NCBI GenBank assembly: GCA_964429385.1
Contig: CAYSBR010000022.1
Location: forward strand, 1 to 63,925
DNA: 63,925 bases
Reading direction: 5' to 3'
Source: an uncultured Opitutaceae bacterium
GTDB taxonomy: Bacteria; Verrucomicrobiota; Verrucomicrobiia; Opitutales; Opitutaceae
This document shows, one piece after another, positions 22,943 through 44,404 of the stretch; position 1 is the stretch's first letter, and every line of letters begins with the position of its first letter. The notes below the pieces were generated by a model that did no database searches, was not told where the DNA came from, and saw only the letters and a list, made by a program, of their open reading frames with translations. Position numbers and translations under genes: made by a program.

Positions 22943-23021
22943 GGGTGGGCCGTGCGCTCCGCGCGCGGCAGGGATGGCGCTAACTCTTTCAAACCGCCGC
23001 GCGCGGAGCGCACGGCCCACC
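22943..23021. repeat. REP/MITE-like palindromic element, copy 1 (arms GGTGGGCCGTGCGCTCCGCGCGCGG / CCGCGCGCGGAGCGCACGGCCCACC, asymmetric loop ...TCTTTCAAACCGC); conserved tail to ~23090
   Basis: Five related copies in window, all between convergent genes. Confidence 0.85.
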
Positions 23022-23338
23022 TCGGCAAAGCCGACTGGAGCGGTTTAAGAAAAACCGCAGCCGGATGCAGTGATGAAAGCGTTGGCCCCAAAAAGGCCCA
23101 AAAAAGGTCGGGTTTTAGGTTCTGATTTTCACGCCTCTTTGCGCATGTGCGGGGACATGATTCACTACAAATTGCCCTATGAAAAATTCCTGGGGCGTTA
23201 GGCGCTGAAGGGTGACGCGAGGGGCCGCCCGCGGGCCGGCGGATAGGGGCGAGGCACGCATGTCCATGACCCAGCTTGGCCGTTTGCTTTTCGACGCTCT
23301 CTCGGGCTGAGATAAGTTTTGTCAGACGTAAGTGCTCC

Positions 23339-24334
23339 TTACGCCAGTTGCGTGCCTGGGATGAAAGGTTCGCCGCGCTGGCCATGCGCGATGTTTTCCA
23401 CGGTGACGCGGGCGATTTCACACAGGGCTTCGGCCGTGAGAAAGGCTTGGTGCGAGGTGATGAGCACGTTGGGAAAGGTCAGCAGCCGCGTGAGTTCATC
23501 ATCCTCCAGCACAGTGCCGGAGAGGTCCTCAAAAAATACGCCTTCCTCCTCTTCATAGACATCGAGCGCAACCCCGCCAAGATGGCGCGACTTTAGCGCG
23601 CCGATGAGCGCAGTGGTGTCCACGAGCTTGCCGCGGCTGGTGTTCACGAGGAAGGCTCCGGGCTTCATGTGCGCGAGGGTGTCCGCGTTGATGAGGTGAT
23701 GGGTCTCCGGCGTCAGCGGAGTGTGGAGTGAGACGATGTCGGCGGTCGCAAGAATTTCGCTCATCGGCGCATAGGTGATGCCGTGGGCGGCGGCCCAGGC
23801 GGCATCGGGTAGAGGATCGGTGGCGAGGACACGCGCGCCGAAGCCGCGGAAGATCTGCGCCGTGAGCCGGCCGATCTTGCCGGTGCCGATGATACCGACG
23901 GTTTTGCCGTACACATCGAAGCCCACGAGTCCGGCGAGGGAGAAGTTATGCTCGCGCACGCGGTTGTAGGCCCGGTGGATCCGGCGGTTGAGCGTCAGCA
24001 GCAGCGCGACGGTGTGCTCGGCCACGGCGTGCGGCGAATAGGCGGGCACGCGGGTGACCGCGAGGCCGAGGGCCTGGGCGGCGGCCAGGTCAATGTGGTT
24101 GAATCCGGCGCTGCGCAGGGCGATGTGGCGCACGCCGCCGGCGGCGAGTTTTTCGAGGCAGGCCCGGTCGAGCCGGTCGTTGACAAAGGCGCACACGGCG
24201 GTGGCGCCGTCCGCCGTCGTGACGGTGTCGGCCGTCAGGCGGAAATCATGAAAGCGCCATGTCTCGGTCGCGCCGGCGGCGGGGAAGTATTCCCGATCAT
24301 AAGGCTTGGTGTCGTAGAAGGCCACGGTGCTCAT
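23339..24334 (-). CDS. ldhA: D-lactate dehydrogenase / D-isomer-specific 2-hydroxyacid dehydrogenase
   Basis: 331 aa; NAD-binding GxGxxG (GIIGTGKIG), catalytic R/E/H, strong similarity pattern to fermentative LdhA. Confidence 0.85.
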   Translation of the reverse strand: MSTVAFYDTKPYDREYFPAAGATETWRFHDFRLTADTVTTADGATAVCAFVNDRLDRACLEKLAAGGVRHIALRSAGFNHIDLAAAQALGLAVTRVPAYSPHAVAEHTVALLLTLNRRIHRAYNRVREHNFSLAGLVGFDVYGKTVGIIGTGKIGRLTAQIFRGFGARVLATDPLPDAAWAAAHGITYAPMSEILATADIVSLHTPLTPETHHLINADTLAHMKPGAFLVNTSRGKLVDTTALIGALKSRHLGGVALDVYEEEEGVFFEDLSGTVLEDDELTRLLTFPNVLITSHQAFLTAEALCEIARVTVENIAHGQRGEPFIPGTQLA

Positions 24335-24518
24335 GCGGCCAGCGTGGCGGAAATCCGCGCGCGCGTCAGCGCAGGATTTGGCAAAACCTGTGCAAATGTG
24401 GCTGCCGCGGACGGGTTAATAAATCATCGCGAAGGACACGAAGAACGCAAAGCCGGGCCTGCCCTTTGTGCTTTTCGCGCCCTTCGCGGTTAAAGCCGAC
24501 CGAGCGGGAGAGAAACAC

Positions 24519-25091
24519 TTACCGCAGCCTGGCGCAGTCGGCGTGGCGGGGGCAGGAGACGAGGTGGTCGTTGACCATGCCGCTGGCCTGCATGAAGGCA
24601 TAGCAGATGGTGGAGCCGACGAATTTGAAGCCTCGCTTCAGCAGGTCCTTGCTCAAGGCATCGCTTTCCGGCGTGCGCGCCGGCACATCGGTGGGCGACC
24701 GGCGGCGGTTGACGATGGGTTGGCCGCCGACGAAGCCCCACAGATAACGGTCAAAGGAACCGAACTCCTTCCGCACCGCGAGATAGGCGCGGGCATTGCC
24801 GAGGGTGGCAGCGATCTTGAGACGATTGCGCACGATGCCGGGGTCGGCGAGAAGCGCGGCGACCTTCCGGTCATTGTAGCGGATGATCTTGCGCGCGTCG
24901 AAGCCATCGAAGGCCCGCCGGTAGTTTTCGCGCTTGTTGAGGATCGTGCTCCAGCTCAGTCCGGCCTGGGCGCCTTCGAGAATAAGCAGCTCGAAGAGAG
25001 CGCGGTCGTCATGCAACGGCACACCCCACTCGTGGTCGTGGTAGGCGATGTCGAGTTCGGTCTTGGGCCAGGGGCAGCGGGCGGATTTCAT
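24519..25091 (-). CDS. tag: DNA-3-methyladenine glycosylase I
   Basis: 190 aa; RCPW...YHDHEWGVP, zinc-binding C..H...H..C pattern typical of Tag. Confidence 0.9.
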   Translation of the reverse strand: MKSARCPWPKTELDIAYHDHEWGVPLHDDRALFELLILEGAQAGLSWSTILNKRENYRRAFDGFDARKIIRYNDRKVAALLADPGIVRNRLKIAATLGNARAYLAVRKEFGSFDRYLWGFVGGQPIVNRRRSPTDVPARTPESDALSKDLLKRGFKFVGSTICYAFMQASGMVNDHLVSCPRHADCARLR

Positions 25092-25309
25092 AAGGGTGAT
25101 ACTCTACCTGCCGACCTGACAGCCTCCTGTCAGGAGCCTTTTGCAATCTCTCTGAGCCTTGATGGGAGCGGGGAGCAAGGAGCTTGGGGCAAGGAGAGGG
25201 GGAATTGCAGACGGTTTTAACCGTGTTTTGAGCGATACGATATTCCGACAGGGATACGTAGGCGCACAAAGGGGAAAGCCTGGTTGGTCATGGGTAACCG
25301 CCTGAAAGG

Positions 25310-25383
25310 GGGACCGGGCGCTCCGCGCGCGGCAGGGCTGCGTTTATCTTTTCAAACCGCCGCGCGCGGAGCGCCCGGCCCAC
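25310..25383. repeat. REP/MITE-like palindromic element, copy 2 (with compensatory arm changes gggcgctc/gagcgccc); tail to ~25430
   Basis: Same arms/loop as copy 1. Confidence 0.8.
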
Positions 25384-25578
25384 CTTGGCAAAGTCACCGA
25401 ACGGATTCCGCGATGAAATCGTTGGCCACAAGCAGGCTCTAAAATGCATCAAAAGATCGGATCTTTAAGGACTTATTTTTTGTGCCTTTGGGCGCCTCTT
25501 TGTGGCCAAACTCAATTGGCATCGCGCTGGCGGTGTTGCGTGCGGCTCACTCCGGATTGATCCTGATCGTCCCAAATG

Positions 25579-26076
25579 TTAATCGCGGGCGGAGAGCAGG
25601 TCTTTGAGATCGAGCGGCCGGGTGTGCATGGCGAGTTCGCCGGCGGGTGTGCGGGGCCATTGTTCCGGCGGGCGGTCGCGGTAGAGTTCGACGCCGTTTT
25701 CATCGGGATCGCGCAGGTAGAGCGCCTCGCTGACGCCGTGGTCGGAAGCCCCGTCGAGAGGGATTTTTGCCGCGATCAGCCGGCGGAGGGCATCGGCCAG
25801 GGCGGCACGGGTCGGGTAGAGAATGGCGGTGTGATAAAGTCCGGTGTGGCCGGGCGGGGGCGGCGTGCCGCCGAGGCTTTCCCACGTGTTGAGCCCGAGG
25901 TGATGATGATAGCCGCCGGCGGAGATAAACGCCGCCTGATCGCCGTATTTCTGCATCAACTGAAAGCCGAGCACGTCGCAGTAAAACTCCAGCGCACGAT
26001 CAAGGTCGGCGACCTTCAGATGAACATGCCCGATCCGGGTGCCGGGATGAAGGGAGGGTGAAGCGGACATGTCCAC
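25579..26076 (-). CDS. VOC-family (glyoxalase/extradiol dioxygenase fold) protein
   Basis: IGHVHLKVADLDRALEFYCDVLGF, metal ligands H/H/E pattern; ~160 aa. Confidence 0.7.
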   Translation of the reverse strand: MDMSASPSLHPGTRIGHVHLKVADLDRALEFYCDVLGFQLMQKYGDQAAFISAGGYHHHLGLNTWESLGGTPPPPGHTGLYHTAILYPTRAALADALRRLIAAKIPLDGASDHGVSEALYLRDPDENGVELYRDRPPEQWPRTPAGELAMHTRPLDLKDLLSARD

Positions 26077-26131
26077 AGCATGCGCCGAACGGCTGGAAAT
26101 GCAAAACCAGCCGTCGGTGGAAATGATGGCG

Positions 26132-27355
26132 CTACTTCGCCGCGTGCTCCGCTACGGTGCGGATGGCGCGGGCGACTTTTTCGATGTAGGCGTCGGACAT
26201 GGCTTCGTTGATCGGGAGGGTGACGCCGTCGGCGAGGATGGCTTCGGCGACGGGGCAGCTGACCCGGGTGTAGTCCATGGTGGTGAGGCCGAAGTCGCGG
26301 ACGGGCCAGGTGCCGCCGAAGAAGTTGTGGTTTTGGAACACCTTGTAGCGATACACGGGCATGGGAATGTAGCCGGCGTTGGCGGCGACGCCCTGGGCCT
26401 TGAGCGCGGCCACGAAGTCGGCGCGCGTGGTCTTGAGGACGGAGAGGTCGAGCCGCAGGAAGTAGAACCAGTAGCTGTGATAATCGCCCTCGCGGGTGAC
26501 GGGCGGGAGCACGCCGGGGAGGTTCTGGAGGCGTTCGGTGAGGAGCGAGCCGGCGCGGTGGCGACGGCTGACGATGTCTTCCAGTTTGCCGAGCTGGGCG
26601 GTGGCGACGGCGGACTGGGGCTCGCTCATGCGGTAGTTGGCGGCGAGTTCGTCGGGATCGCGTGAGCCGGTGACGCGGTCGTAGCATTTGTCGCCCCACT
26701 TGGAGAGGCCGGCGCCGAGGTCGTCGCGATTGGTGCCGACGAGGCCGCCGTCGCCGCAGGCGATGTGCTTGAAGTCGTTCAGGGAATAGCAGCCGAAATC
26801 ACCCATGAGGCCGACGGGGGTGCCGCGGTGCTTCGCGCCCCAGGCCTGCGCGCAGTCTTCGATGACGGCGAGGCCGTGCTCGCGGGCGAGGGCGGTGATC
26901 GCGGTCAGGTCGCAGGGGTTGCCGGTGAGGTGCACGACCATGATGGCGCGGGTCTTCGGCGTGAGGGCGCGGCGGATGGCGGCGGGATCGGAATTGTAGG
27001 TGCGCGGGTCGAGGTCGGTGAAGACGGGGACGCCCTGCTGGAAAAGAATGCCGATGACGGAGCCCATGTCGGTGATGGGCGAGACGATCACTTCCTCGCC
27101 GGGCTTGAGCCGCAGCGCGGCGACGGCGACGTGCAGCGCGGCGGAGCCGGAGGAGGTGGGGAAGAGGTGCTTGAGCGGATAGTGCCGGCGGAAGTCGGTG
27201 AGCAGCGCATTGGTCTGCGGTCCGTTCCAGTAAAACAGGGATTTTTGCCGGACCATCTCGATGAGCCGGGCGAGTTCGGCGTCGCCCCAGCGCACGGGCT
27301 GGGGAACGGGTTCATCAACGATGGGGCTCAGGACGGGAGGAGTGGAGGTGGACAT
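26132..27355 (-). CDS. DegT/DnrJ/EryC1/StrS-family PLP-dependent aminotransferase
   Basis: 407 aa; PLP-lysine context (SLNDFKHIACGDGGLV), family-wide N-terminal and ...EDCAQAWGA... blocks. Confidence 0.85.
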   Translation of the reverse strand: MSTSTPPVLSPIVDEPVPQPVRWGDAELARLIEMVRQKSLFYWNGPQTNALLTDFRRHYPLKHLFPTSSGSAALHVAVAALRLKPGEEVIVSPITDMGSVIGILFQQGVPVFTDLDPRTYNSDPAAIRRALTPKTRAIMVVHLTGNPCDLTAITALAREHGLAVIEDCAQAWGAKHRGTPVGLMGDFGCYSLNDFKHIACGDGGLVGTNRDDLGAGLSKWGDKCYDRVTGSRDPDELAANYRMSEPQSAVATAQLGKLEDIVSRRHRAGSLLTERLQNLPGVLPPVTREGDYHSYWFYFLRLDLSVLKTTRADFVAALKAQGVAANAGYIPMPVYRYKVFQNHNFFGGTWPVRDFGLTTMDYTRVSCPVAEAILADGVTLPINEAMSDAYIEKVARAIRTVAEHAAK

Positions 27356-27475
27356 GAGTGAAAAAGGTTTTTAGCCACAGAGGGCACGGATAATCGCAGA
27401 TGAGATAACAGCGGTGAGGCGGCGAAAGCGCAGGGCTAATCTGGGTCCTTTGTGCCCAGCTGTGGCTGAGTCTGA

Positions 27476-28231
27476 TTAGAGATTGAAGAAGCGGCGGGCG
27501 TTTTCCGCGCCGATCAGGGTTTTGGTTTTGGCGGGGATGGGCGCGAGGCGGAGTTTGTCGGCCTGGGCGCGGGTGGAAAGGAGGGGCGTATTGGTGCCGA
27601 GCATGAGGCGGCGGGCGGGTATCACGGTGAGCAGGTCGTTCACAGTGTCGGCCCACTCGCAAAAGGCGATGTCGGCGGAGAAGTTGGCGTGCTCGGCGGC
27701 GAGGGCCTTCAGGTCGGGGCGATACAAACCGGTGAGAAGAACGGAATGATCGGGGAAGCGGGCGAGGAAGCGGGCAATGTCGGGATTGGGCACGCCTTTG
27801 ATCCGCAGAGCGAAGTAGCGGTGGCGTTCGTCCTGCAGGCGGACGTTGACGATGAGCTTGAGGCCGGCCTGGGCGAGCGCGCTCATGAAGGGATCGAGGG
27901 CGCGCGCGGTGAGCCGGTAGTTGTGGTAGTTGGGGAAAATTTTGACGGCGCGGAGGGGAGCGGCGGCCTGGCAGGCGGCGAGTTGTTCCGCCCAGTTGGG
28001 CAGCGCGGGGTTGAGGACCGGGACGGGCAGGAGCGCGGGGGTGCGGCGGACCGCGGCGAAGAGCGCGATGTTGGCCGGCATGGGATCGGGCAGAAAAACC
28101 GCGCCGAGGGGCGAGACGAGCGCGCGGCGAATGCCGCTGGCCGCGAGGTGGGTGGCGAGGGCGGGGGCGGTGCGCGCCGGCAGCGGGGCGAAAGGCCAGG
28201 GGCCCAAGTGTGCGTTGGTGTCAATGAGCAT
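27476..28231 (-). CDS. Amidohydrolase-2 (TIM-barrel metal-dependent hydrolase) family protein
   Basis: MLIDTNAHLGPW... start typical of Amidohydro_2; 251 aa. Confidence 0.6.
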   Translation of the reverse strand: MLIDTNAHLGPWPFAPLPARTAPALATHLAASGIRRALVSPLGAVFLPDPMPANIALFAAVRRTPALLPVPVLNPALPNWAEQLAACQAAAPLRAVKIFPNYHNYRLTARALDPFMSALAQAGLKLIVNVRLQDERHRYFALRIKGVPNPDIARFLARFPDHSVLLTGLYRPDLKALAAEHANFSADIAFCEWADTVNDLLTVIPARRLMLGTNTPLLSTRAQADKLRLAPIPAKTKTLIGAENARRFFNL

Positions 28232-28239
28232 GGCGCGGT

Positions 28240-29016: not shown

Positions 29017-29081
29017 GGGGCGGGAAATCCGGAGTAGGCTCAAGGGAACGGAGTGACAAGCGCGGGGAATGCGCCTAACGG

Positions 29082-30955: not shown

Positions 30956-30957
30956 CC

Positions 30958-32004: not shown

Positions 32005-32080
32005 GCCATGAGTCTTATAATCGGCCATTCCGATCGGGGCGAAACTGCTGAACTGCAGGCGGCTGGATTCGAACTGGTAG

Positions 32081-34682: not shown

Positions 34683-34760
34683 GGTGGGCCGTGCGCTCCG
34701 CGCGCGGCAGGGAGGTGGTCCCCTCTTTCAAACCGCCGCGCGCGGAGCGCACGGCCCACC
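34683..34760. repeat. REP/MITE-like palindromic element, copy 3
   Basis: Same arms/loop as copies 1, 2, 5. Confidence 0.85.
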
Positions 34761-34809
34761 CTGAAAAGCGTTTCATGCCGATGGCCCGATTTAGCCACCG
34801 ATCGCTCCG

Positions 34810-34893
34810 CCACGGATGCGCCGCGGTGCACAGGGGCTTGCTCGCCTTTGGCGAGTCGGGCCCTGCCTTCCGTCACTGCTTCGGGTGATTCTC
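34810..34893 (+). repeat. Repeat module B, copy 2
   Basis: ~90% identical to 22815..22899. Confidence 0.8.
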
Positions 34894-35010
34894 AATAATC
34901 CGTGCCTAGCGGTGTAATCCGCGGCAGAAAATTCAGCGCCTCCTGTCCACGCGGTTTCAATCCCAAGCGGGGGCGGCCTCGGAGAATTCAAACTGTCGCC
35001 GACGGCAGGA

Positions 35011-36309
35011 TCAGTCGCGGGGGTAGTCGGGCCAGATGTCGCGGAGGATGTCCACGCGCTGGGCGAAATTGACCATCACGCTGGAGGGGGCGCGGACGAT
35101 TTTGCCGGTGTCGAAGGAGACGGTGCCGATGATGTTGCCCGCGTTGAGGATAGCGACGATCTCTCCCTTGGCGTTGAAGATGGGGCTGCCGCTGGCGCCG
35201 CCGGTGGCGCCCAGGCTGTGCTGCACGAGCAGGCGTTTTTCGTAGGAGGCCTGGGCCAGCCAGAAGTCGGTGGCGGAGGTGACGATGCCGGACTGCATCG
35301 TGGCGACGGGGCTGCGCACTTCCACGCCGCCGCCGGCCATGCCTTCCATCGGGAAGCCGAGGTAGCCGATGCGATAGCCTGAATCGAGCTTCTCCAGTTC
35401 GGCGCGTTTCGCGACCTTGAAGATCCGGGGCGCGCTTTCATCCGTGTGCAGCAGGCCGACATCGTAGGCTGCGACGGCGGGCTGCTTGCCCTCGAAGTTC
35501 AGCTCCGTCTTTTCATAACGCGGATGCACGACCGCCCGGGTGATGCGGATTTTTTTGTCGGGGTTGCGGTTGATGACGATGTAGGCGGAGCCGCCGTTCT
35601 GGATCACCTCAAGGACCGGTTTGGAGACGTGGGAATTGGTGGCGAAGACGCGCGGCCCCACGGCCCAGGCGGTGGCCATCGGCGTGGGCTGGCCGTTGGA
35701 GATATTGGGATGCACGATGACGACCAGGCCGACGGCGTCGGAGTAATCCTGCGCGACCTGGGCGAGGGCTTTTTCAGGCGCGGGTTGGAGGAAGCTGAGT
35801 TTGTCGCGGAAGAACCAGCCGGCGGCGGCGAGCAGCACGACGAGCACGGCGACGATGGCGATCACCGGGCCGGCTCCGCCGGACTTCGGGGCGGGGGCCG
35901 CGGGTGATTCCACGGGTGCGGGGGCGGGCTGGGCGGCGACGGGAGGAGGCGCGGCCCGGGTGGCGGCCGGGGCGGGGGTGGCCGTCGCGACGGGCGCGGC
36001 GGGGCCCGCAAAATCCACCCGGACCTTCGGGCCGCCGCGGCCCAGCTCCAGCACGGCGCCGGGGGCGAGTTTTTCCTGCGCGACCTTGCGGTCAGCAATG
36101 AAGAGGCCGGCCTTGCTCTGGTCCTTGATCCACCAGGCGCCGCCGCGGTGCTCCATCACGAGATGCCGGCCGGACACGGTCTTGTCCCACGTGGCGTCGA
36201 AGCGCAGGTCGCAGCCGGCTTCGGTGCCGAGCGCGATGCTGTCCTGATCGAGGGTGAGCGTCTTGTTGCGGTCGAAACCGGTGAGGCGGGTCAGGGTGAT
36301 GGAGGGCAT
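35011..36309 (-). CDS. FHA domain - single TM - trypsin-like (S1/DegP-type) serine protease fusion protein
   Basis: N-terminal FHA (IALGTEAGCDLRF...VSGRHLVMEHRGGAWWIKDQSKAGLF), Pro/Ala-rich linker, TM (VIAIVAVLVVLLAAAGWFF), protease domain with His (TNSHV), Asp (DVGLL) and Ser (GASGSPIF); ATG 36309. Confidence 0.75.
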   Translation of the reverse strand: MPSITLTRLTGFDRNKTLTLDQDSIALGTEAGCDLRFDATWDKTVSGRHLVMEHRGGAWWIKDQSKAGLFIADRKVAQEKLAPGAVLELGRGGPKVRVDFAGPAAPVATATPAPAATRAAPPPVAAQPAPAPVESPAAPAPKSGGAGPVIAIVAVLVVLLAAAGWFFRDKLSFLQPAPEKALAQVAQDYSDAVGLVVIVHPNISNGQPTPMATAWAVGPRVFATNSHVSKPVLEVIQNGGSAYIVINRNPDKKIRITRAVVHPRYEKTELNFEGKQPAVAAYDVGLLHTDESAPRIFKVAKRAELEKLDSGYRIGYLGFPMEGMAGGGVEVRSPVATMQSGIVTSATDFWLAQASYEKRLLVQHSLGATGGASGSPIFNAKGEIVAILNAGNIIGTVSFDTGKIVRAPSSVMVNFAQRVDILRDIWPDYPRD

Positions 36310-36335
36310 AAGGAAAAGATGGACTCCGATTGTCG

Positions 36336-36350
36336 GCAGGATACGTGCCA
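36336..36350 (-). promoter_or_regulatory. Putative sigma-54 promoter (TGGCAC-gtatc-CTGC, minus strand) for the FHA-protease gene
   Basis: Reverse complement of 36336..36350; correct spacing; -12 CTGC (3/4); ~27 nt before ATG 36309. Confidence 0.45.
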
Positions 36351-36413
36351 GAAGCAAATTGGGCACGCAAGTCTCTTGCCCTCGGAATGTAGCGCAGAGA
36401 ATAGCCTTTTCGC

Positions 36414-36428
36414 TGGCACGAGATTTGC
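36414..36428 (+). promoter_or_regulatory. Sigma-54 promoter, perfect consensus TGGCAC-gagat-TTGC(CA), 50 bp upstream of STK1
   Basis: Exact match to -24/-12 consensus. Confidence 0.75.
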
Positions 36429-36477
36429 CACAACGAAGGCAGCCAGTGGTACTGTCCCAGCTTTCATTTCTTTCCGC

Positions 36478-38322
36478 ATGAACGATCTCGATTTTGGTGA
36501 AACCCTCAAAGGCTTCAGCCCCGGCCAGAAAGCTTTCAATCGCTACACGCTGAAGAAAATCCTGGGTCGCGGCGGGATGGGGATCGTGTGGCTGGGGCGG
36601 GACGAGGAGTTGGAGCGCGACGTGGCGCTGAAGTTCCTGCCGGAAGTGGTGGCCTTGGACAAAGAGGCGATCCGCGACCTCAAGCGAGAGACGCGGCGCT
36701 CGCTGGAGCTGACACACCCGCACATCGTGCGGATCTACGACTTTGTGCAGGATGCCCGCATGGCGGCGATCTCGATGGAATACGTGGCCGGGGATACCTT
36801 GGCCTCGCGGAAGGTGGATCACCCGGAAGGCCGGTTTGAAGTGGAGGAGCTGAAAGCATGGACGGGGCAGTTGCTGGAAGCGCTGGCCTACGCGCACGGG
36901 AAGGCGGAAGTGGTGCACCGGGACCTGAAACCGGCGAACCTGATGGTGGACGCACGGGGCGACCTTAAAGTGGCGGACTTCGGGATCGCGGCGAGTGTGA
37001 GCGACTCGGCCTCACGGGTCTCGGCGCAGGCGGGGACGAGCGGGACGCCGGTGTATATGAGCCCGCAGCAGATGATGGGGGAGAAACCGGCGGTGACGGA
37101 TGACATTTATGCGCTGGGGGCGACACTCTACGACCTGCTGACGGGGAAGCCGCCGTTCCACGCGGGAAATATCATTTTGCAGGTGCAGAACAAAGTGCCG
37201 CCGACGCTCACGGAGCGGCGGGCGGAGCTAGGGGTGAAGGCGGGAGCGATTCCGGCGGAGTGGGAAGAGACAATCGTGGCGTGCCTAGCAAAGGAGCCGG
37301 GCGCCCGCCCGCAGAGCGCGGCCGAAATGGCGGAGCGATTGGGGTTAACCACGAAGGATACAAAGAGCGCGAAGCGCATACAAGTTGAAGCAGGAGAATC
37401 GGGGGCCGAAGGCAGGGCGAAGCCGCCGGCTGAGCCGGTTCCCCAAGCCAAAATCGAAAAGCCAAAATCGAAGATTTCACCGCTGGCGCTCGCTGCCGGC
37501 GTGCTGCTGCTTGCGGGGGCGGGCTATTACTTCGGTTATTATGCACCCGCGCAGAAGCGTCAGACTCCGGAGGTGATTGAGCGGGAGAAAATGGAGGTGA
37601 GCGGTGGTCGTGCGGCCTACGATGTGACGCCTGATTTGATCAAGGGCCTCGGCCCCGGCGATGACATCACGCCCGTGCCAGTGGACGAGCGTCATGCGAC
37701 GGATGATGGCGGTCTTTATTATGCCGTGGCCATCAACGACCGCGCGCTCATGGCCCAGCGGCTGGCCGCCGGGGCCAACCCGCTGGAGGGCGGATTCATT
37801 AGCTCCATTTACGGCATCGGCATCGGTGCTCCGCTGCAAGCGGCCTTGCGGGATGGTCGCTTCCTGCTCGTCCGCGAATTGCTGCGGCGCAGCCCCAAGC
37901 CTGACCCGCAGGAGTGGAGGACGGTGGATGGGTACCGGATGAGCTTTGCGACGGCCTGCGGCACCGGCAACTGGGATATGATCCAGTTGTTCCTTGATTT
38001 TCACCCGGTCGAGTGGGAACTCGATGCCTGGCTTGGGCTGCTTGAGACCAAGAAGCCGGAACTGCTTGAGCGCGCTGTGAGGGCAGGCGCCGATCCTAAT
38101 TACCGTGACAATCGTTCAGGTGCGACGCCCCTGCATAAAGCAGCGGCGGATGGGTTTAATGATGCGGCCATGCTTCGCGCATTCATAAACTTGGGCGCGG
38201 ATATTAAAGCGAAAGACAAGAGCGGCAAACTCCCGTTCGACTTGCTGAGCGCCGATGCTCCCGCCGAGATCCGGCGGCTGCTCACACCGGCCGGTGGTCA
38301 AACAATGGGGGCTGGCCGTTAA
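36478..38322 (+). CDS. Hanks-type Ser/Thr protein kinase with TM segment and C-terminal ankyrin repeats (STK1)
   Basis: Kinase subdomains: GRGGMGIVW, VALKFLP, HRDLKPANLM, DFGIA, SPQQ(APE-like); TM ISPLALAAGVLLLAGAGYYF; C-term ANK (GATPLHKAAADGFNDAAMLRAFINLGADIKAKDKSGKLP). Confidence 0.9.
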   Translation: MNDLDFGETLKGFSPGQKAFNRYTLKKILGRGGMGIVWLGRDEELERDVALKFLPEVVALDKEAIRDLKRETRRSLELTHPHIVRIYDFVQDARMAAISMEYVAGDTLASRKVDHPEGRFEVEELKAWTGQLLEALAYAHGKAEVVHRDLKPANLMVDARGDLKVADFGIAASVSDSASRVSAQAGTSGTPVYMSPQQMMGEKPAVTDDIYALGATLYDLLTGKPPFHAGNIILQVQNKVPPTLTERRAELGVKAGAIPAEWEETIVACLAKEPGARPQSAAEMAERLGLTTKDTKSAKRIQVEAGESGAEGRAKPPAEPVPQAKIEKPKSKISPLALAAGVLLLAGAGYYFGYYAPAQKRQTPEVIEREKMEVSGGRAAYDVTPDLIKGLGPGDDITPVPVDERHATDDGGLYYAVAINDRALMAQRLAAGANPLEGGFISSIYGIGIGAPLQAALRDGRFLLVRELLRRSPKPDPQEWRTVDGYRMSFATACGTGNWDMIQLFLDFHPVEWELDAWLGLLETKKPELLERAVRAGADPNYRDNRSGATPLHKAAADGFNDAAMLRAFINLGADIKAKDKSGKLPFDLLSADAPAEIRRLLTPAGGQTMGAGR

Positions 38323-38339
38323 TGCTAGTTTGGATGAAG

Positions 38340-38386
38340 CGCCCGGAATGCCCTTCATCTTCTCCAACCGCCACGCGCGGAGCGCA
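38340..38386. repeat. Truncated copy (loop + right arm only) of the REP/MITE-like element, copy 4
   Basis: cttcatcttctccaaccgccacgcgcggagcgcacggtccac matches loop/right arm of copy 5. Confidence 0.6.
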
Positions 38387-38415
38387 CGGTCCACTTGTTG
38401 AGCAAGGAACAGGGG

Positions 38416-40059
38416 TTATGGTTCCAGCTTCACGCGCCAGGTGCGGGCGCCGAGGCGGAGTTGCTGGCCGGTGGCGAGGGGGGCGATCTCGCCGGGGCGG
38501 AGGGTGAGGCGATCCACTTGCACGGCACTGTTGGCGACAAGGGTCTCGATCCAGAAACAGCCGCGGTAGTGGTGGAAGCGGCCCTGGACTTCGGCCAGGG
38601 TCGGGTCGGAGGTCATTACAATGGCGTTGGAGCGGCTGGTGCCGAAGGTGCCGTCGGTGTGCAGCCAGACGGCGTTGAGCGGCTGGGCCTCCGGGGGGAC
38701 GACCTCGAAGCGCACGGCGCCGCGCAAGAGCGGGGGCGTCGCGGGCGGGCCGGCCCATTGCCGGGCGTTGCTGATCACGGGGTCGCTTTCCACGCCGGGG
38801 GGCACGCGGTCGAAATCCACCTCGATGGCGCCGGCGAGCAGCAGCCGCCCCTGGCGCGGCAGCTGGGTGCCGTTTTCATCGAGCGGCACGCCGTCGAAGA
38901 GGCTGCCGTTGGCGCTGGCGTTGTCGCGGAGGAGGATGCCGTCGGGGGTGATCTCGGCGATGGCGTGGACTTTGCTCACGCGTTTGGTCTTGTCGTCGTT
39001 GGCCGGGTTGCGCGGGAGCAGCCAGGAGACGAAGTCGGCCTCGGCCCGGCCGCGGCCGAGGCTGAAGCGGGGCCGGGCGACGAGGCGGAAGGGCAGCGGA
39101 GAGACGTAGGCGCCGACCGCCTCCAGCGTGCAAAGCCCGGCGGGCTGCACGGTGGCGAGCAGGGCGGAAGGCAGGTGCAGGCTGGAGGCGTGCGTGGCGG
39201 CGCGGAAACCGGAGTCGTGGCGGCTCACCTCGTAGTCGAGATCGAGGGCGATGCGCTGGAAATTCTCCGGCAGGTCGAGGTCGAGCAGGTCGTTGACGGA
39301 CTTGATCGCACCCTTGGCGATGAGATTGCTGATCTGCACATCGCCGTATTCCGCGCCGAGGGCCTGGTTGGCGCCGCCGCCGGTGTTGCTCTGAATATCG
39401 CTGATGTTGATGACGATGTTGGAATTGTCGGGCGCCTTGTAGAGGCGGAGCGGGTGCTGGCCGCGGTAGGCCAGTCGCTGGCCAGCCTGGTCCCAGGCGG
39501 CGGCGATCTGGATGACAAAATGACCGGCGCGCGCAGCCTCGACTTCGAGGAGGAGATCGGTGCGGCTGCCGGCGCCGAGCCGGCGGACGCGGGAGAGGGC
39601 TTCGCCGGCCAGTCCGCGCGAGCTGACATACAGCTCCAGGTTTTCGATGGCGGCGGCGGATTCGTTTTCCGCGCGGAAGACGAGGGTGCCGGCGTGGCCG
39701 GCCACGAGGGCGTGCGGGAGGTTGAGTTCCAGCACGAGCGGGCTCGGGTCGTCGTTGCCGGTTGGTTGCGACGGCGCAGACGCAGGGGGGCGGACGATGG
39801 GCGGCGGCGGAGCCGGGGGCGCTTCAGGGACCGCAGGAGTAGGCGGCGCCGGATGGGCCGGCGTGCTCAGGGTGGCGGGGGGCGGGTTGGCCTCCGCCTC
39901 CGTTTCAGAATGCGGCCGGCTGGAGCTGCGCGACACCGCAGTCGCCTGCAAGGGGGAGGTTTCCTCCACCGGGTCAACCGGGGTGGCGGTGCCGCAGGCC
40001 GGGCAGAAGCGGCTTTTGGGGGTGAGGGGAGTCTGGCAGGCGGGACAGAAGCGTGGCAT
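38416..40059 (-). CDS. Zinc-ribbon - Pro-rich linker - central domain - tandem FHA-domain protein
   Basis: N-term MPRFCPACQTPLTPKSRFCPACG (double Zn ribbon); C-terminal region with two FHA-like modules (FSLGRGRAEADFV...ITPDGILLRDNASANGSLFDGVPL and GTSRSNAIVMTSDP...GCFWIETLVANSAVQVD); alternative start 40083. Confidence 0.65.
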   Translation of the reverse strand: MPRFCPACQTPLTPKSRFCPACGTATPVDPVEETSPLQATAVSRSSSRPHSETEAEANPPPATLSTPAHPAPPTPAVPEAPPAPPPPIVRPPASAPSQPTGNDDPSPLVLELNLPHALVAGHAGTLVFRAENESAAAIENLELYVSSRGLAGEALSRVRRLGAGSRTDLLLEVEAARAGHFVIQIAAAWDQAGQRLAYRGQHPLRLYKAPDNSNIVINISDIQSNTGGGANQALGAEYGDVQISNLIAKGAIKSVNDLLDLDLPENFQRIALDLDYEVSRHDSGFRAATHASSLHLPSALLATVQPAGLCTLEAVGAYVSPLPFRLVARPRFSLGRGRAEADFVSWLLPRNPANDDKTKRVSKVHAIAEITPDGILLRDNASANGSLFDGVPLDENGTQLPRQGRLLLAGAIEVDFDRVPPGVESDPVISNARQWAGPPATPPLLRGAVRFEVVPPEAQPLNAVWLHTDGTFGTSRSNAIVMTSDPTLAEVQGRFHHYRGCFWIETLVANSAVQVDRLTLRPGEIAPLATGQQLRLGARTWRVKLEP

Positions 40060-40146
40060 GGCGGTCTCTCCGGCATAAGCCATACCAGTTGGGGAGAAAA
40101 TTCCAGCATCCTTTCCACCAATGATTTTTGGATTTCGGCTCGCGGT

Positions 40147-40161
40147 TGGCACAGCAATTGC
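40147..40161 (+). promoter_or_regulatory. Sigma-54 promoter, perfect TGGCAC-agcaa-TTGC, ending 12 nt before ATG 40174
   Basis: Exact consensus; implies a leaderless or near-leaderless transcript. Confidence 0.7.
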
Positions 40162-40173
40162 CGATATCCGCCC

Positions 40174-41019
40174 ATGATGATTCCAAATCGCTTTCTTACC
40201 TGCAAGCGGCTGGGGACGGCCGCCGTGGCCCTGTTTTTTTCCTGCCTGCTTGCCGCCCAGGGACCGGAGGATTCCCGCGAAGACCAGCAGGTGCGCGTGC
40301 AGATCACCGAGCTCGGCCTGCTCCGCACGCTCATCCTCATGGCGCCCGATTCGCAGGATCTCGCCGGGCAGGTGCGGCAACAGTTTGTGGACCGCGACTA
40401 TGAGGTTTACACCGACGCCCAGCGCATCTCGGGCCGCGTGACCTCGGCGCAGATGCGCGAGGCGGGCGAGTCGGAAAACGCCGACCTCGTCGTCTATGCG
40501 CGCATCGTCGGCGACCGCCGCCGCAGCAATGCCTCGGGGTTCAAGCTCTATGAGGCGACGGCGGGGGTGCAGGTCTTCAACCGGCTCACCGGCCGCGAGG
40601 TCGTGAGCAAGGAGGTGCGCGTGAGCGGCACCCGCCATCCCGATGAAATCGAGGCCCGGCGCTCGGCACGGGAGAAGGCGATGGAGCGGGCGACGCGCGA
40701 AGCCATCGAGGGCACGCTCGCCACGGCGCACAAGATCCTCGTGCACCATGCCGTCATCGTGAACGTCTTCAGCGAAAGCGGACTGCTCGCCCTCATGGAA
40801 TACATGGGGAAGATGGAAGGCGTCTATCACGTGAAGCGACTGGAGTTCGACCGGCAGACCAACGAGGCGCTCATCGAGATCATCGGCGAGCCGCGCTCGC
40901 AGACCTTCTGGCGCGCCTATCTGGAAAAGCTGCCCAAGACCAAGGTGAACGTGCAGGTGACGCCCAACGACAGCCTGCACAACAAGTATCCCGACTGGTT
41001 CCTGCCGCCCGCGCAGTGA
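40174..41019 (+). CDS. Secreted hypothetical protein (signal peptide MMIPNRFLTCKRLGTAAVALFFSCLLAAQG)
   Basis: In-frame ATG pair at 40174/40177 followed by a canonical signal peptide; 281 aa. Confidence 0.55.
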   Translation: MMIPNRFLTCKRLGTAAVALFFSCLLAAQGPEDSREDQQVRVQITELGLLRTLILMAPDSQDLAGQVRQQFVDRDYEVYTDAQRISGRVTSAQMREAGESENADLVVYARIVGDRRRSNASGFKLYEATAGVQVFNRLTGREVVSKEVRVSGTRHPDEIEARRSAREKAMERATREAIEGTLATAHKILVHHAVIVNVFSESGLLALMEYMGKMEGVYHVKRLEFDRQTNEALIEIIGEPRSQTFWRAYLEKLPKTKVNVQVTPNDSLHNKYPDWFLPPAQ

Positions 41020-41047
41020 ACTCCGTTTCCTTCCCCCTTCTTTCCAC

Positions 41048-41806
41048 ATGAAAACGCTCTTCATCCTTCTCGCCGCCCTGGCCGGTGCCGTTTCACTCGC
41101 CGCCCAATCCGCCACCACGCCCGCGCCCGCCGCCCCGCCGGTGGCCGTCACCCCGGCGCTCAAGCCCGTGGACTGGAAGGCCGATCCCACGATGACGGAA
41201 TACGCCAAGCAGGCGGGCACGCTCGCCATCCAGGAATGGGTGCAGGAATTCCTCGGCAAGCAATTCGACGCGAAGCGCTATGCGATCTTCCCCGTCGGCA
41301 GCGACCTCGACGACGGGTATTTCACGCTGCAAATCCGCAATCTTTTCGCCAGCGGCGCGCTGGGTTCGGACTACTCGCTCTACACGCGCGAGGATCCGGC
41401 CTGGGACGCCATTGTGGAAAAGGAGATGCGGATGGGCTTCGACCGCGAGGGCATGATGGACGAGGAAACCATCGCGCGGTGGGGTCGGGAGAACGGCGTG
41501 CAGGGCGCGATCCGCGGCCGCATCTCCGGCGTGTTCCTCGGCCAGGGCCCGGGCACGGGCGGCATCCGCATGGCGGACGACGCCCGCATCCTGCAGGTGC
41601 GCGTGCTGCTCCAGGTTTTTGAAATCGAGACCGGCCGCCTCCTGTGGGGGGCCGAGCGCGTGGCCGCCGTGCAATTGCCCGACGAGTCACTGATCATCCC
41701 CGGGACCAAGCGCCAGTGGATCCTCTATGGCGGGGCCGGCCTCCTCGGCCTGATCGTGATCATCTTCATCCTGCGCGCGCTCAAGTCGGCCAACCGTCCC
41801 CGCTGA
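41048..41806 (+). CDS. Exported hypothetical protein with signal peptide and C-terminal TM anchor
   Basis: MKTLFILLAALAGAVSLAAQ signal; C-terminal WILYGGAGLLGLIVIIFIL TM. Confidence 0.55.
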   Translation: MKTLFILLAALAGAVSLAAQSATTPAPAAPPVAVTPALKPVDWKADPTMTEYAKQAGTLAIQEWVQEFLGKQFDAKRYAIFPVGSDLDDGYFTLQIRNLFASGALGSDYSLYTREDPAWDAIVEKEMRMGFDREGMMDEETIARWGRENGVQGAIRGRISGVFLGQGPGTGGIRMADDARILQVRVLLQVFEIETGRLLWGAERVAAVQLPDESLIIPGTKRQWILYGGAGLLGLIVIIFILRALKSANRPR

Positions 41807-41843
41807 ACGCATGTTCCTCCGGTCCAAAGGACGGAAGCGCCCG

Positions 41844-42404
41844 ATGAAAATGGCGGCCATCCGCTTGCTGCTGGTTTTCGCTGTTAGCGGGCTGTCCGCC
41901 TCCGAAATTTTTGCCGCCCCGGTGACAGTGATGGCGCAGGCGCGGCAAGACCCCGCGGCGCTCGCGGAGTTAAATGCGGTGCTTTGGCAGCCCCTGGAAT
42001 CTGCCTTTGCCGCGGGCGATGCCGCGGCTTGGCGCGCTTTGTTCAAGCCCGGTGCACTGCTGGCCAGTGGCGATATGCCAACCCTCAACCTGGTTGAAAC
42101 GCAGGCTCTCGGCGTGGAACGCCGGTTCAAGCTTCGGCATGGCCGCGAGGGATTCGGCTTGGTGGTTCGATTTACGGAGCGTGCTGTGGCGGGAGGGCTG
42201 GCGTCGGAGCGCGGGATTATCGAGGAAACAAACTGGAGCGTGCGGGACCGCTGGGAAAAGGTTTACCGCGAATTCCATGCGTTTGCGCGCAAGGTGGACG
42301 GCGTGTGGCAGTTCGAGGTCTTTTACCAAAAAACGCTGTCGGGTGATTATGCGAGCCGGGCCTTTGCCGCGGCGTCGGCGATGGCGGATCTCAAACGGTT
42401 TTAA
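41844..42404 (+). CDS. Exported hypothetical protein (NTF2/SnoaL-like fold suspected)
   Basis: Signal peptide MKMAAIRLLLVFAVSGLSASEIFAAP; ~185 aa. Confidence 0.45.
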   Translation: MKMAAIRLLLVFAVSGLSASEIFAAPVTVMAQARQDPAALAELNAVLWQPLESAFAAGDAAAWRALFKPGALLASGDMPTLNLVETQALGVERRFKLRHGREGFGLVVRFTERAVAGGLASERGIIEETNWSVRDRWEKVYREFHAFARKVDGVWQFEVFYQKTLSGDYASRAFAAASAMADLKRF

Positions 42405-42434
42405 ACCATCACGACAACAAGCCGCACAGACTGC

Positions 42435-44273
42435 ATGGACGACCTCGACTTCGGCGCCACGATCAAGGGGTTTTCCCCGGGACAGAAGGTTTTCAACCGC
42501 TACACGCTGACGCGCATCTTGGGGCGCGGCGGCATGGGTGTCGTCTGGCTGGCGCGGGACGAGGAACTGGAGCGCAATGTCGCCCTGAAGTTTCTGCCCG
42601 AAGTAGTCGTGCTTGACCGCGAGGCGGTGGACGAACTCAAGCGCGAGACGCGGCGCAATCTGGAGCTGACGCATCCGCACATCGTGCGGATCTACGATTT
42701 TGTGTCGGATGGTCGCGCGGCGGCGATCTCGATGGAGTATGTGGAGGGAGCCTCGCTCTCGGCCCTGAAGGTGGAGCAGCCGGAGAAGGTCTTTCCGGTG
42801 GAGAAACTCCGTCGCTGGGTGGCGCAGGTGGGCGAGGCGCTGGAGTATGCGCACACGCGGGCCAAGGTGGTGCACCGCGACATCAAGCCAGCCAACCTGA
42901 TGATTGACGCGCAGGGCGACGTGAAGGTGACGGACTTCGGGATTGCGCGTTCGATTGCCGACAGCGTCAGCCGCGTCAGCGCGCAACTGGCGGGCAGCAG
43001 CGGGACGCCGGTGTATATGAGCCCGCAGCAGATGATGGGGGAGAACCCGGCGGTGGCGGACGATGTGTATGCCCTGGGGGCGACGCTGTATGAATTGCTG
43101 ACGGGGAAGCCGCCTTTCTACACGGGCAACGTGGTTTTGCAGGTGCAGCACAAGGTGCCGCCGACGCTGGCCGCGCGCCGCGAAGAGCTGGGCCTCAAGG
43201 CCGGGCCGGTGCCGGAGCATTGGGAGAAGACCATCGCCGCGTGTCTGGCGAAGGAGCCGGCGGAGCGGCCGAAAAGCATGGCGGAGGTGGTGCGGTTGCT
43301 TGACGGGCCGGGCCCCGGAGCGGACACGGCGAAGGATCCCTCCGCGCTATTCGAGGAGGTTTTTGGAAAGGCGCCTTTTACCAAGCTCTTTGATGAGGTT
43401 CCCGGATCATCACCAGTCGGCGGGTGTGAACGCGGGACCGATCTGCACAGTGAACTGAGCCTGACGGCGGACGAGCTGGCGAAGGGTGGTGAGCGCCACG
43501 TCCACTTTCCGCGGGCGGGTCAGACGGTCCGGCTCGTATTGACGATCCCCCCGCAATCGCGGGCAGGGCAGAAACTGCGCATCCGGGGACAGGGTGGGCC
43601 GGGGGTGAATGGTGGCGAGGCGGGGGATTTATATATCGTCCTGCAACTGGCCGCCGAGCCGGCGGTGCCGCCCTCTGGTCGGCGGGGGTTGGCTGCCTCT
43701 GTTCCGCGGTTGCTCGCCGCCTTGGTCGGCTCGGCGATCTTGCTGGGCGTGGCGATTCGCTGGCTTCTGGGGGTGTGGAGCAACGAATTGGCGTGGGACT
43801 GGCGTTGGTATGATTACTCCACCTTGCTGGGCTGGAGCATAATCACCGCGCTTTTCGGAGGCTGGGCAACCTCAGGCCGGCTGGGCCGGGGATGCTGGAC
43901 GATCTTTGCCGCGGGCGTGGGGCTGACGGGTATCCTGTATATGGAGACGGGGGAATTGCTTTTGTATGGCGGCTCGTATGATAGCGCGGCCCTGGCCTTC
44001 AATCTCACGGGCGCATCGGTGGCGGGCATGATCCTGGGCGGGGTGGGCGGTTTCGCTCTGAGCCGGGTCGCGGGCCTGCGGCCAAGGCTGGGGCTGGAAA
44101 TATTCTGGGGGATCGTGGGTGGAGTGATCGTAACCGCGGGCGCACTGGTCGCCCAGCCGCCCCGTTTTTCGGATTTTGATTTCAGCCTCTTCTCCTGGTG
44201 CGTGATCGGCGGGCTCGGCTGGCTGCAGGCCCTCCGCTTGATGCTCGTGCGCGCACCGGCTCCGTCCGCTTAA
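42435..44273 (+). CDS. Ser/Thr protein kinase with DnaJ C-terminal-domain-like segment and ~8-TM C-terminal region (STK2)
   Basis: Kinase head ~85% identical to STK1/3/4; middle GQKLRIRGQGGPGVNGGEAGDLYIVLQ resembles DnaJ CTD; C-terminus with Gly-rich TM helices. Confidence 0.9.
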   Translation: MDDLDFGATIKGFSPGQKVFNRYTLTRILGRGGMGVVWLARDEELERNVALKFLPEVVVLDREAVDELKRETRRNLELTHPHIVRIYDFVSDGRAAAISMEYVEGASLSALKVEQPEKVFPVEKLRRWVAQVGEALEYAHTRAKVVHRDIKPANLMIDAQGDVKVTDFGIARSIADSVSRVSAQLAGSSGTPVYMSPQQMMGENPAVADDVYALGATLYELLTGKPPFYTGNVVLQVQHKVPPTLAARREELGLKAGPVPEHWEKTIAACLAKEPAERPKSMAEVVRLLDGPGPGADTAKDPSALFEEVFGKAPFTKLFDEVPGSSPVGGCERGTDLHSELSLTADELAKGGERHVHFPRAGQTVRLVLTIPPQSRAGQKLRIRGQGGPGVNGGEAGDLYIVLQLAAEPAVPPSGRRGLAASVPRLLAALVGSAILLGVAIRWLLGVWSNELAWDWRWYDYSTLLGWSIITALFGGWATSGRLGRGCWTIFAAGVGLTGILYMETGELLLYGGSYDSAALAFNLTGASVAGMILGGVGGFALSRVAGLRPRLGLEIFWGIVGGVIVTAGALVAQPPRFSDFDFSLFSWCVIGGLGWLQALRLMLVRAPAPSA

Positions 44274-44324
44274 CCGGACCGGGGCGGATGAATCATAGAG
44301 GAGTCGTTGATCTTGCCGGTTGAA

Positions 44325-44404
44325 GGGTGGGCCGTGCGCTCCGCGCGCGGCCCGGATGTGCTTCATCTTCTCAAAACCGCCGTGCGCGGAGCGCCCGGCC
44401 CACC
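44325..44404. repeat. REP/MITE-like palindromic element, copy 5
   Basis: Between convergent STK2 and bEBP stops. Confidence 0.85.

Follow-up and report, generated by a model that had tools for sequence, protein, structure and literature searches.

The palindromic elements distributed along the 63,925-nt window, the whole stretch of Opitutaceae DNA analyzed here, most probably belong to a REP family of the GTAG/GTGG-tagged superfamily, arranged mainly as REPIN-like inverted doublets and likely spread by a RayT transposase. The observation is real but ordinary, as REPs of this kind have already been described in Opitutus terrae; the palindromes fit the REP/REPIN class documented there and need no new mechanism. 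What is gained is a defined unit, together with its covariance model, for a family whose copies fragment metagenome assemblies of Opitutaceae and the PVC group, as well as a clean case in which covariation separates a small unit hairpin from a long doublet hairpin.

The 26-nt unit and its copies in the window

The basic unit is a short hairpin of 26 nt, which consists of an unpaired 5'-GGTGG tag, a 9-bp stem (GCCGTGCGC/GCGCGCGGC) containing one wobble or mismatch, and a 3-nt TCC loop. It is this hairpin, rather than the long palindrome, that represents the functional unit. Its dimensions lie within those given for REPs (20-40 bp, with a stem usually of 6-9 bp; Di Nocera 2013), and the (G)GTGG tag is retained in 38 of 41 units that were free of search-pattern constraint. 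The initial annotation had described five copies with arms of about 25 bp, and both points were borne out: the sequences are present at all five sites, and the 25-mer arm gave nine matches with at most three mismatches in the window, compared with 0.00 expected from 100 shuffles. A covariance model of the 26-nt unit (model R1), run on the window with filters off, detected exactly nine units, and the next best score was noise. Eight of these nine are paired in four inverted doublets and the ninth stands alone, giving five sites in the 64 kb window, and several MAGs also carry multiple sites. Rfam 15 at gathering thresholds gave no match to the window elements and at permissive thresholds returned just sub-threshold matches to generic miRNA-precursor hairpins, while a literature search for the exact unit sequence, and for Opitutaceae together with REP, also gave no match.

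Copy 1 (full doublet span 22944-23021) begins with a left unit on the plus strand (22944-22969, 49.2 bits with R1), in which GGTGG is followed by GCCGTGCGC-TCC-GCGCGCGGC, continues with the asymmetric spacer AGGGATGGCGCTAACTCTTTCAAACC (22970-22995, plus strand), which is conserved among the window copies, and ends with a right unit on the minus strand that is identical to the left one (22996-23021, 51.3 bits). Because its arms are identical, the doublet is a perfect 26-bp palindrome, and its predicted RNA fold has an energy of -79.1 kcal/mol (z = -9.7). The two units of copy 3 (34683-34760) are likewise identical, lying at 34683-34708 on the plus strand (51.9 bits) and 34735-34760 on the minus strand (50.1 bits), and the element folds at -74.8 kcal/mol (z = -10.8). 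In copy 2 (25308-25384), the left unit (25308-25333, plus strand, 33.9 bits) carries the degenerate tag GGGGGA, and the right unit (25359-25384, minus strand, 49.9 bits) has a G at stem position 4. The arms of copy 5 (44326-44404), located at 44326-44351 on the plus strand (51.1 bits) and 44379-44404 on the minus strand (46.7 bits), differ at two positions, which makes this doublet a heterodimer. Copy 4 is represented by the single unit AGTGGACCGTGCGCTCCGCGCGTGGC, a right arm only (38370-38395, minus strand, 37.4 bits), adjoining a spacer-like segment (38339-38369, plus strand) that is homologous to the spacer of copy 5. Its left unit is missing or degenerate, and the stop codon of a kinase gene (38320-38322) occupies the expected place.

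At four of the five window sites, two inverted REPs enclose a short spacer that is conserved within the genome, which is the arrangement of a REPIN. These spacers measure 25-27 nt, share AGGG...TCTTTCAAACCGC, and end in TCTTTCAAACCGC or close variants, in agreement with the asymmetric loop and common ending described at the outset. The tail reported as common to copies 1 and 2 (GGCAAAG...CGGATGCAGTGATGAAAGCGTTGGCCCCAA) is also present, at 23022-23097 and 25385-25437, both on the plus strand. In local alignment it scores 38.5, compared with an average of 13.6 for shuffled sequences (sd 2.3, maximum 26), and a 30-nt tail pattern with 24 specified bases matches at copies 1 and 2 only. The tail was absent from 210 other loci, and GGCAAAG stands next to the tag in just 4 of 162 units. 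A second repeat of 105 nt occurs at 22795-22904 and 34790-34898, with no significant fold, no Rfam match, and no copies elsewhere.

Covariation and distribution of the family

The unit was found by a collection-wide scan in many MAGs of Opitutaceae and other Verrucomicrobiota, and also in those of Kiritimatiellales and Victivallales. In related loci, model R1 identified 162 units from 84 sources, and this GTGG-tagged family occurs, as the REP class does, in the form of singles, inverted dimers, and clusters: 46 tag-outward doublets, 35 internal singles, one 6-unit tandem array, and a few clusters were counted. Across the family, doublet spacers are mostly 20-36 nt long, and tag-inward pairs are essentially absent.

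Pairing was assessed in an alignment of 137 distinct units that was fitted to the model and in which the search pattern accounts for part of the invariance (core GCGCTCCGCGC, GTGG). In this alignment, the unit hairpin is 94.7% paired and shows double changes at six of the nine pairs (pair 9-30 is GC in 92 units, CG in 24, AU in 11, and UA in 2), whereas slid controls are at most 49% paired. Among 41 pattern-unconstrained units, two fully compensatory switches were observed, G-C to A-T 17 times and G-C to C-G 15 times, with zero half-changed intermediates, and the tag and TCC loop remain fixed. Doublet arms, in contrast, carry two to four differences in 31 of 41 cases and are identical in just 5 of 41, and where they differ, each arm retains its own stem. 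The covariation check proposed in the initial annotation thus uncovered compensatory changes in the 9-bp stem of the unit but did not extend them to the long hairpin; what selection maintains is the 9-bp hairpin of the individual unit rather than the long hairpin of the doublet. The substitutions in copy 2 that had been taken as evidence of selection for the hairpin do exist (G/C versus T/A in copies 1 and 3). However, the argument drawn from them is weak: in copy 5 just one arm carries this substitution, and throughout the family the position forms a U-G wobble or a mismatch within the stem of the unit itself.

The elements had also been labeled REP/MITE-like, a description that is apt in its REP sense (tag plus hairpin; singles, doublets, and tandems; no target-site duplications; dispersal in many genomes) but not in the sense of a DDE-type MITE. 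A classical MITE would be a deletion derivative of a DDE-transposase IS, bounded by terminal inverted repeats and moved by cut-and-paste, and a doublet does resemble two 26-bp terminal inverted repeats around a short core. However, target-site duplications flank no copy, and the flanks of the four doublets show no direct repeats. In addition, half elements, that is, single units, are common and conserved as hairpins, the two arms of a doublet often come from different stem haplotypes, and a related IS was seen in no locus, so we give this origin hardly any credence.

The high conservation of the motif across distant PVC genomes would also be expected of duplex palindromes that serve chromosome organization as sites for a host DNA-binding protein, such as a nucleoid-associated protein, gyrase, or a regulator, and the REP/BIME elements of Escherichia coli bind gyrase and IHF. 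Yet the covariation preserves intrastrand pairing in each unit, which duplex recognition does not require, and in-frame insertions in coding sequence are hard to explain in this way. Such sites are very improbable as the primary identity of the elements, although host-protein binding could be a secondary property of the units.

The orientation of single units relative to GC skew was 22 versus 10 overall (p = 0.05) and, when counted per genome, 10 versus 7, which is not significant. In a hand tally of singles in regions with an absolute GC skew of at least 0.1, 19 of 24 were on the C-rich strand, as were 13 of 13 in three MAGs. The overall count is suggestive, and single units may be oriented relative to the replication strand. 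Should vertical descent account for the wide PVC distribution, the family could mark very long-lived REP-transposase associations. A bolder and, in our judgment, unlikely proposal is that the REP with a GTGG tag and a TCC loop is an ancient lineage common to Verrucomicrobiota, Kiritimatiellota, and Lentisphaerota, sustained by a RayT clade yet to be found or by none; it would then be an unusually old and widespread REP-transposase partnership or a domesticated structural element.

Placement relative to genes

The exclusively convergent placement claimed for the copies had to be abandoned. Copy 2 lies at a co-directional junction, between the start of a methyladenine glycosylase gene (24519-25091, minus strand, Pfam E = 7e-81) and the stop of a glyoxalase gene (25579-26076, minus strand, E = 2e-16), whereas copies 1, 3, 4, and 5 are at convergent junctions and none is at a divergent one. 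Occupancy in the window is four of nine convergent junctions versus 1 of 37 others (p = 0.0035). In related loci, where the convergent bias was checked, elements occupy 25% of convergent junctions versus 10% of others (p = 0.002), or 25% of convergent, 11% of co-directional, and 7% of divergent ones, and the family-wide sites comprise 17 convergent, 24 co-directional, 5 divergent, and about 20 intragenic cases, these orientation counts and occupancies resting on rough GC3-based gene calls. The bias is thus upheld, but the exclusivity is not. The roughly threefold enrichment at convergent junctions is genuine and of a kind common among REPs, and the unit family shows the REP pattern in which convergent and unidirectional positions are preferred and divergent ones are rare; convergent placement reflects the bias usual for REPs and does not amount to a rule. 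Unit copies are also found in frame inside HrpB and HrpA helicase genes (Pfam-verified).

The junction of copy 2 can be compared with that of a relative in which the glyoxalase-to-tag gene order is kept and a neighboring 2-hydroxyacid dehydrogenase is 82% identical. There, the gap between the two genes is 145 nt and contains no unit, whereas here it is 487 nt with a doublet; the gap of the relative is an empty orthologous site.

Convergent gaps hold four of the five window copies, a significant enrichment that would suit purpose-built bidirectional terminators or stabilizers of mRNA 3' ends, for which the RNA hairpin, and not a mobile DNA, would be the conserved entity. As RNA, the doublets have very stable folds on both strands (-67 to -79 kcal/mol, z of -7 to -10.8), and the REPs of E. 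coli stabilize upstream mRNA. However, a T/U run after the hairpin is absent on either strand of any copy, which leaves the bidirectional terminator function suggested in the initial annotation unsupported by the sequence and led us to reject a canonical intrinsic (Rho-independent) terminator; the sole terminator-scan match overlapping an element is a minor internal stem in the spacer of copy 2. Moreover, the elements lie at distances between 21 and 357 nt from the flanking stop codons, copy 2 sits upstream of the start of a gene, and the family also includes single units, tandem arrays, and units placed in frame within genes. Conservation is seen in the small unit hairpin, whereas the long one is usually imperfect, and the orthologous junction lacks the element altogether. 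A dedicated terminator or stabilizer is accordingly an improbable explanation, and a putative mRNA-stabilizing role of the elements is possible.

For a REP family spread by RayT, the placement would arise as follows. In single-stranded DNA, each unit would fold into its own small hairpin, and a RayT-type HUH/Y1 transposase would recognize the tag and hairpin, cut the strand, and rejoin it, so that single units or whole doublets would be copied to new sites without target-site duplications. Selection would remove insertions in promoters and most coding sequence, and since convergent gaps hold no promoter, copies would accumulate downstream of genes and especially in those gaps. We infer a probable mobilization of the units by a RayT in the source genome. 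Doublets, if they are transcribed at all, would form RNA hairpins of 26-28 bp, which might hinder 3' exonucleases or read-through; any effect on RNA that we infer from this would be a by-product or secondary use.

RayT genes and comparison with known REP systems

To look for a RayT/Y1 transposase gene, the window and about 120 REP-bearing loci were screened with a regex, with 25 RayTs as tblastn queries, and with a broad RayT/TIRYT HMM run at full sensitivity, for which a positive control worked; all of these screens were negative. Eighty metagenomic RayT loci gave no match to unit model R1, and none of them is flanked by the exact unit. The O. terrae-type RayT loci are not flanked by the exact window unit either. 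The Oter_2468-type RayTs (L121, L123, L125-L131) were rejected as cognates, being flanked by a different REP with a GTAG-GG...CTTG-loop structure. Elsewhere, GTGG-tagged REPs do flank the RayT genes of one clade, and a further gain of the analysis is the observation that REPs have a GTAG or a GTGG tag according to the RayT clade. Three further RayTs of the L157 clade were also rejected, as their REPs are GTGG-tagged but have other stems.

Comparing the window family with the REP/BIME elements of E. coli and their RayT (TnpA-REP, YafM), both combine a tetranucleotide tag with an imperfect palindrome and are located at gene 3' ends and between convergent genes, rarely between divergent ones. However, the E. 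coli elements carry a GTAG tag and have longer, bulged stems, and their host belongs to another phylum. The REPIN system of Pseudomonas fluorescens was reportedly defined by Bertels & Rainey in 2011 by a single-copy RAYT flanked by the same REPINs. Similar to REPINs, the window elements contain two inverted REPs and a short spacer conserved within the genome, and they are extragenic and multicopy, with more doublets than singles and with long hairpins formed by the doublets. They differ in sequence and tag, family doublets are mostly heterodimers with imperfect long hairpins, and a RAYT flanked by the same REPINs was not found in the window, the roughly 120 REP-bearing loci, or the 80 RayT loci.

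The GTGG-tagged REPtrons of metagenomic contigs L157, L208, L209, and L210 likewise contain GTGG-tagged hairpins, which there lie on both sides of RayT genes that encode proteins at most 47% identical to each other. The L157 unit, AGGTGG-CACGACGC-TCC-GCGTCGTG, has the tag, the loop, and a similar stem length (8-9 bp) in common with the window unit. However, the stems of the GTGG REPtrons differ from that of the window unit and give no score with model R1.

In the parts of the published survey that concern O. terrae, this species is described as highly enriched in tagged REPs, which lie mainly between unidirectional and convergent ORFs, and one REP is placed in frame within HrpA (Di Nocera et al. 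2013, PMC3733652). One O. terrae family has GTGG in place of GTAG; it is named GTAG-20 in the text, but its label in Additional file 3 is apparently GTAG-19 (Di Nocera, De Gregorio & Rocco 2013, BMC Genomics 14:522). As far as those parts describe it, this family resembles that of the window in its Opitutaceae host, its GTGG tag, its short GC-rich stem, and its occurrence as singles, inverted dimers, and in-frame genic copies, including one in an HrpA helicase gene. The REP peptides published there for O. terrae (GTGVPPV, WHGRPAR, and HGRDARAT) back-translate to GTGG-CACGGGCG-TCC-CGCCCGTG, suggesting that the O. terrae GTGG REP would have the tag and TCC loop of the window unit. The stem reconstructed from these peptides differs from the GCCGTGCGC/GCGCGCGGC stem of the window, and the window REPs would therefore constitute a distinct family or subfamily.

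Repeat units in the window and beyond

Direct reading of the sequence confirmed that palindromes are present at all five places described. The 25-nt arm has nine matches at ≤3 mismatches, against 0.00 expected from shuffles, and the unit covariance model, applied to the whole window without filters, returned exactly nine units scoring 34–52 bits, with the next match at 17 bits. Copies 1 (22944–23021), 2 (25308–25384), 3 (34683–34760), and 5 (44326–44404) are doublets, in which two inverted units surround a spacer. Copy 4 (38370–38395) is a single unit that has lost its left partner and still carries a spacer homologous to the one in copy 5. The spacers of all five copies have the same orientation on the plus strand. 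The window has a G+C content of 66% and a GC skew that is strongly and uniformly positive irrespective of gene strand (0.05–0.17, measured over 8 kb at a time), and therefore lies on one replichore; the skew is similarly high in related PVC loci (mean absolute value of 0.09). The kinase gene next to copy 4 ends in codons and a stop (38306–38322, GGGGCTGGCCGTTAA) similar to the initial 12 nt of a REP left unit, and decay of a REP arm may have given this C terminus its form.

A scan with a 20-nt core, using one genome per species, detected at least 119 stretches. Among the matches listed, about 85 are true copies. Most of these come from MAGs of Opitutaceae and other Verrucomicrobiota, and some from Kiritimatiellales, Victivallales, and two MAGs without classification; the remaining matches, from actinomycetes and others, were rejected as chance coding matches in which the other parts of the unit are missing. 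Single and paired occurrences of the 26-nt sequence are equally frequent in these genomes, and every copy is able to form its own hairpin (GGTGG, GCCGTGCGC, TCC, GCGCGCGGC). The model built from 87 distinct units identified 162 units in 84 sources, arranged as 46 tag-outward doublets with spacers of mostly 20–36 nt, 35 internal singles, and a few clusters, with tag-inward pairs essentially absent. At one contig end (L103, 2608–2819), six units of the same orientation follow in tandem with a 36-nt period, which is made up of one unit plus CCGGAGCCAAG.

The unit hairpin as the conserved structure

The small hairpin of the unit is 94.7% paired in the aligned units, compared with ≤49% after sliding of the 3' partners, and changes on both sides are seen in six of the nine stem pairs. 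At the outermost pair, 92 units have G-C, 24 have C-G, 11 have A-U, and 2 have U-A, and the fourth pair is a U-G wobble in 70 units and a mismatch in 55. Because this alignment was fitted to the model and part of its invariance was imposed by the search pattern, a second look was limited to 41 units outside that constraint. These fall into four stem haplotypes linked by two switches, both fully compensatory: 17 units show G-C to A-T and 15 show G-C to C-G. Half-changed intermediates are absent, and the tag and TCC loop are unaltered. Arm sequences match completely in just 5 of 41 doublets; typically the two arms differ at 2–4 of the 26 positions, and often they are of different haplotypes. Since each arm nevertheless keeps its own stem, the conserved structure is the small hairpin of the unit and not the long hairpin of the doublet. 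The initial annotation had taken a compensatory pair in copy 2 as a sign of selection for the long hairpin. This pair falls on the wobble/mismatch position, at which the family commonly has either allele, and only one arm of copy 5 bears the change, so that the pair provides no evidence of such selection.

As RNA, the doublets are predicted to fold at −67 to −79 kcal/mol on either strand (z of −7 to −10.8). A role as canonical intrinsic terminators was rejected, because no T-run follows the hairpins at any copy in the window and the distance from element to flanking stop codon varies from 21 to 357 nt. REPs of Escherichia coli are known to protect upstream mRNA or attenuate read-through, and a similar putative function is possible for the doublets in the window.

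Gene junctions and neighboring repeats

The genes flanking each copy were fixed by Pfam scans. Copy 1 lies between a DUF2314 protein (+) and a 2-hydroxyacid dehydrogenase (−), copy 3 between a GlcNAc 2-epimerase (+) and an FHA/trypsin-like protein (−), copy 4 between a Ser/Thr kinase with ankyrin repeats (+) and an FHA/zinc-ribbon protein (−), and copy 5 between a Ser/Thr kinase (+) and an FHA-sigma54 activator (−). These four junctions are convergent. The proposal that placement is exclusively convergent fails at copy 2, where the methyladenine glycosylase gene (tag, 24519–25091, −) has its start toward the element and the glyoxalase gene (25579–26076, −) its stop, which makes the junction co-directional. 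On a gene map curated by hand with Pfam scans, the window has about 46 junctions, and elements occupy 4 of 9 convergent, 0 of 8 divergent, and 1 of 29 co-directional ones (hypergeometric p = 0.0035). In related loci, for which gene calls were rough and GC3-based, 17 sites lie at convergent, 24 at co-directional, and 5 at divergent junctions, and about 20 lie within ORFs; elements occupy 25% of convergent, 11% of co-directional, and 7% of divergent junctions (convergent versus rest, p = 0.002). The region at 35011–55873 is a dense signaling cluster, in which four paralogous Ser/Thr kinase genes (36148–38322, 42435–44273, 48743–51364, and 52394–55873; DNA blocks 60–84% identical) are interleaved with three FHA-domain proteins (trypsin-like, 35011–36918; zinc ribbon, 38416–41259; sigma54 activator, 44480–46360).

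No direct repeats were found in the flanks of any doublet. In a relative whose neighboring dehydrogenase is 82% identical to that of the window, the orthologous gap from glyoxalase to tag measures 145 nt and has no unit, whereas in the window it measures 487 nt and holds a doublet and a tail. An operator-like palindrome upstream of tag is kept in both. This palindrome (CTCCTGACAGGAGGCTGTCAG, 25116–25136, minus strand) looks like a putative operator, because it is kept in two relatives (L206 and L207) in which the gap is otherwise not conserved. The further tail of 45–75 nt is common to copies 1 and 2 and had no other occurrence in the window or other loci, which suggests that the dehydrogenase and tag genes are bracketed by a composite repeat or that a local duplication took place. 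Another repeat, about 105 nt long and unrelated to the REP, occurs at 22795–22904 and 34790–34898 (90–97% identical), 35–65 nt from copies 1 and 3 but to opposite sides. The sequence that continues this repeat (34896–34944) recurs in another convergent gap near 9.1 kb (9063–9111), and the repeat showed no significant fold, Rfam match, or copy in the other loci.

Possible RayT association and relation to published REPs

No RayT-like ORF is present in the window or in any REP-bearing locus, an uninformative result given that a RayT usually has one copy per genome. The REPs flanking genes homologous to the Opitutus terrae RayT Oter_2468 (sequence from Additional file 5, PMC3733652) are of a GTAG-GG-stem-CTTG-loop type whose stems vary, and they form arrays beside the genes at L121 9790–10640 and L125 2040–2450; the window-type unit is absent beside these genes. 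The TAG stop codon of the L121 RayT falls within a GTAG tag, and in L125, seven tandemly spaced copies lie upstream. The unit model gave zero matches in 80 metagenomic RayT loci. A structural scan of the same loci revealed AGGTGG-CACGACGC-TCC-GCGTCGTG on both sides of the L157 RayT, and three more RayTs of its clade have GTGG-tagged hairpins of different stems alongside. Tag type thus appears to follow RayT clade. Mobilization of the window repeats by a RayT is moderately probable, and the putative mobilizer is most likely one of the GTGG-associated clade. L157 (metagenome contig Ga0272442_10031237) also holds a complete REPtron at 1289–3097, in frame within a leucyl-tRNA synthetase ORF and free of stop codons over 603 codons, in the order GTGG-tagged REP, RayT domain, and inverted REP (...REWIGRSEGAEVDFPLE / RayT / EYLRVYTTRPDTL). 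Either a mobile element has inserted in frame into an essential gene, or the assembly is chimeric at this place.

GTAG- and CGTC-tagged REPs were defined by Di Nocera et al. 2013 (PMC3733652), who found that REP units form dimers, that they are located mostly between ORFs of unidirectional or convergent orientation, and that O. terrae is highly enriched in tagged REPs, with one family carrying GTGG in most members. The window repeats favor convergent gaps and the 3' ends of genes, a preference that is usual for this class and not exclusive. Back-translation of the published REP-encoded peptides gives a reconstructed GTGG-CACGGGCG-TCC-CGCCCGTG, which would share tag and loop with the window unit but differ in its stem, and a literature search did not find the exact window sequence. 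Overall, the window repeats are a genuine repeat family and very probably a previously undescribed member of the known tagged-REP/REPIN class. Intragenic REPs are most numerous in O. terrae, two of them in HrpA (PMC3733652). These insertions are paralleled by a doublet that adds 24 codons in frame to the HA2 region of an HrpB-type helicase (L055, 5099–5171) and by a doublet and a single unit in frame in an HrpA-type helicase ORF (L082, 3783–3836 and 5515–5540).
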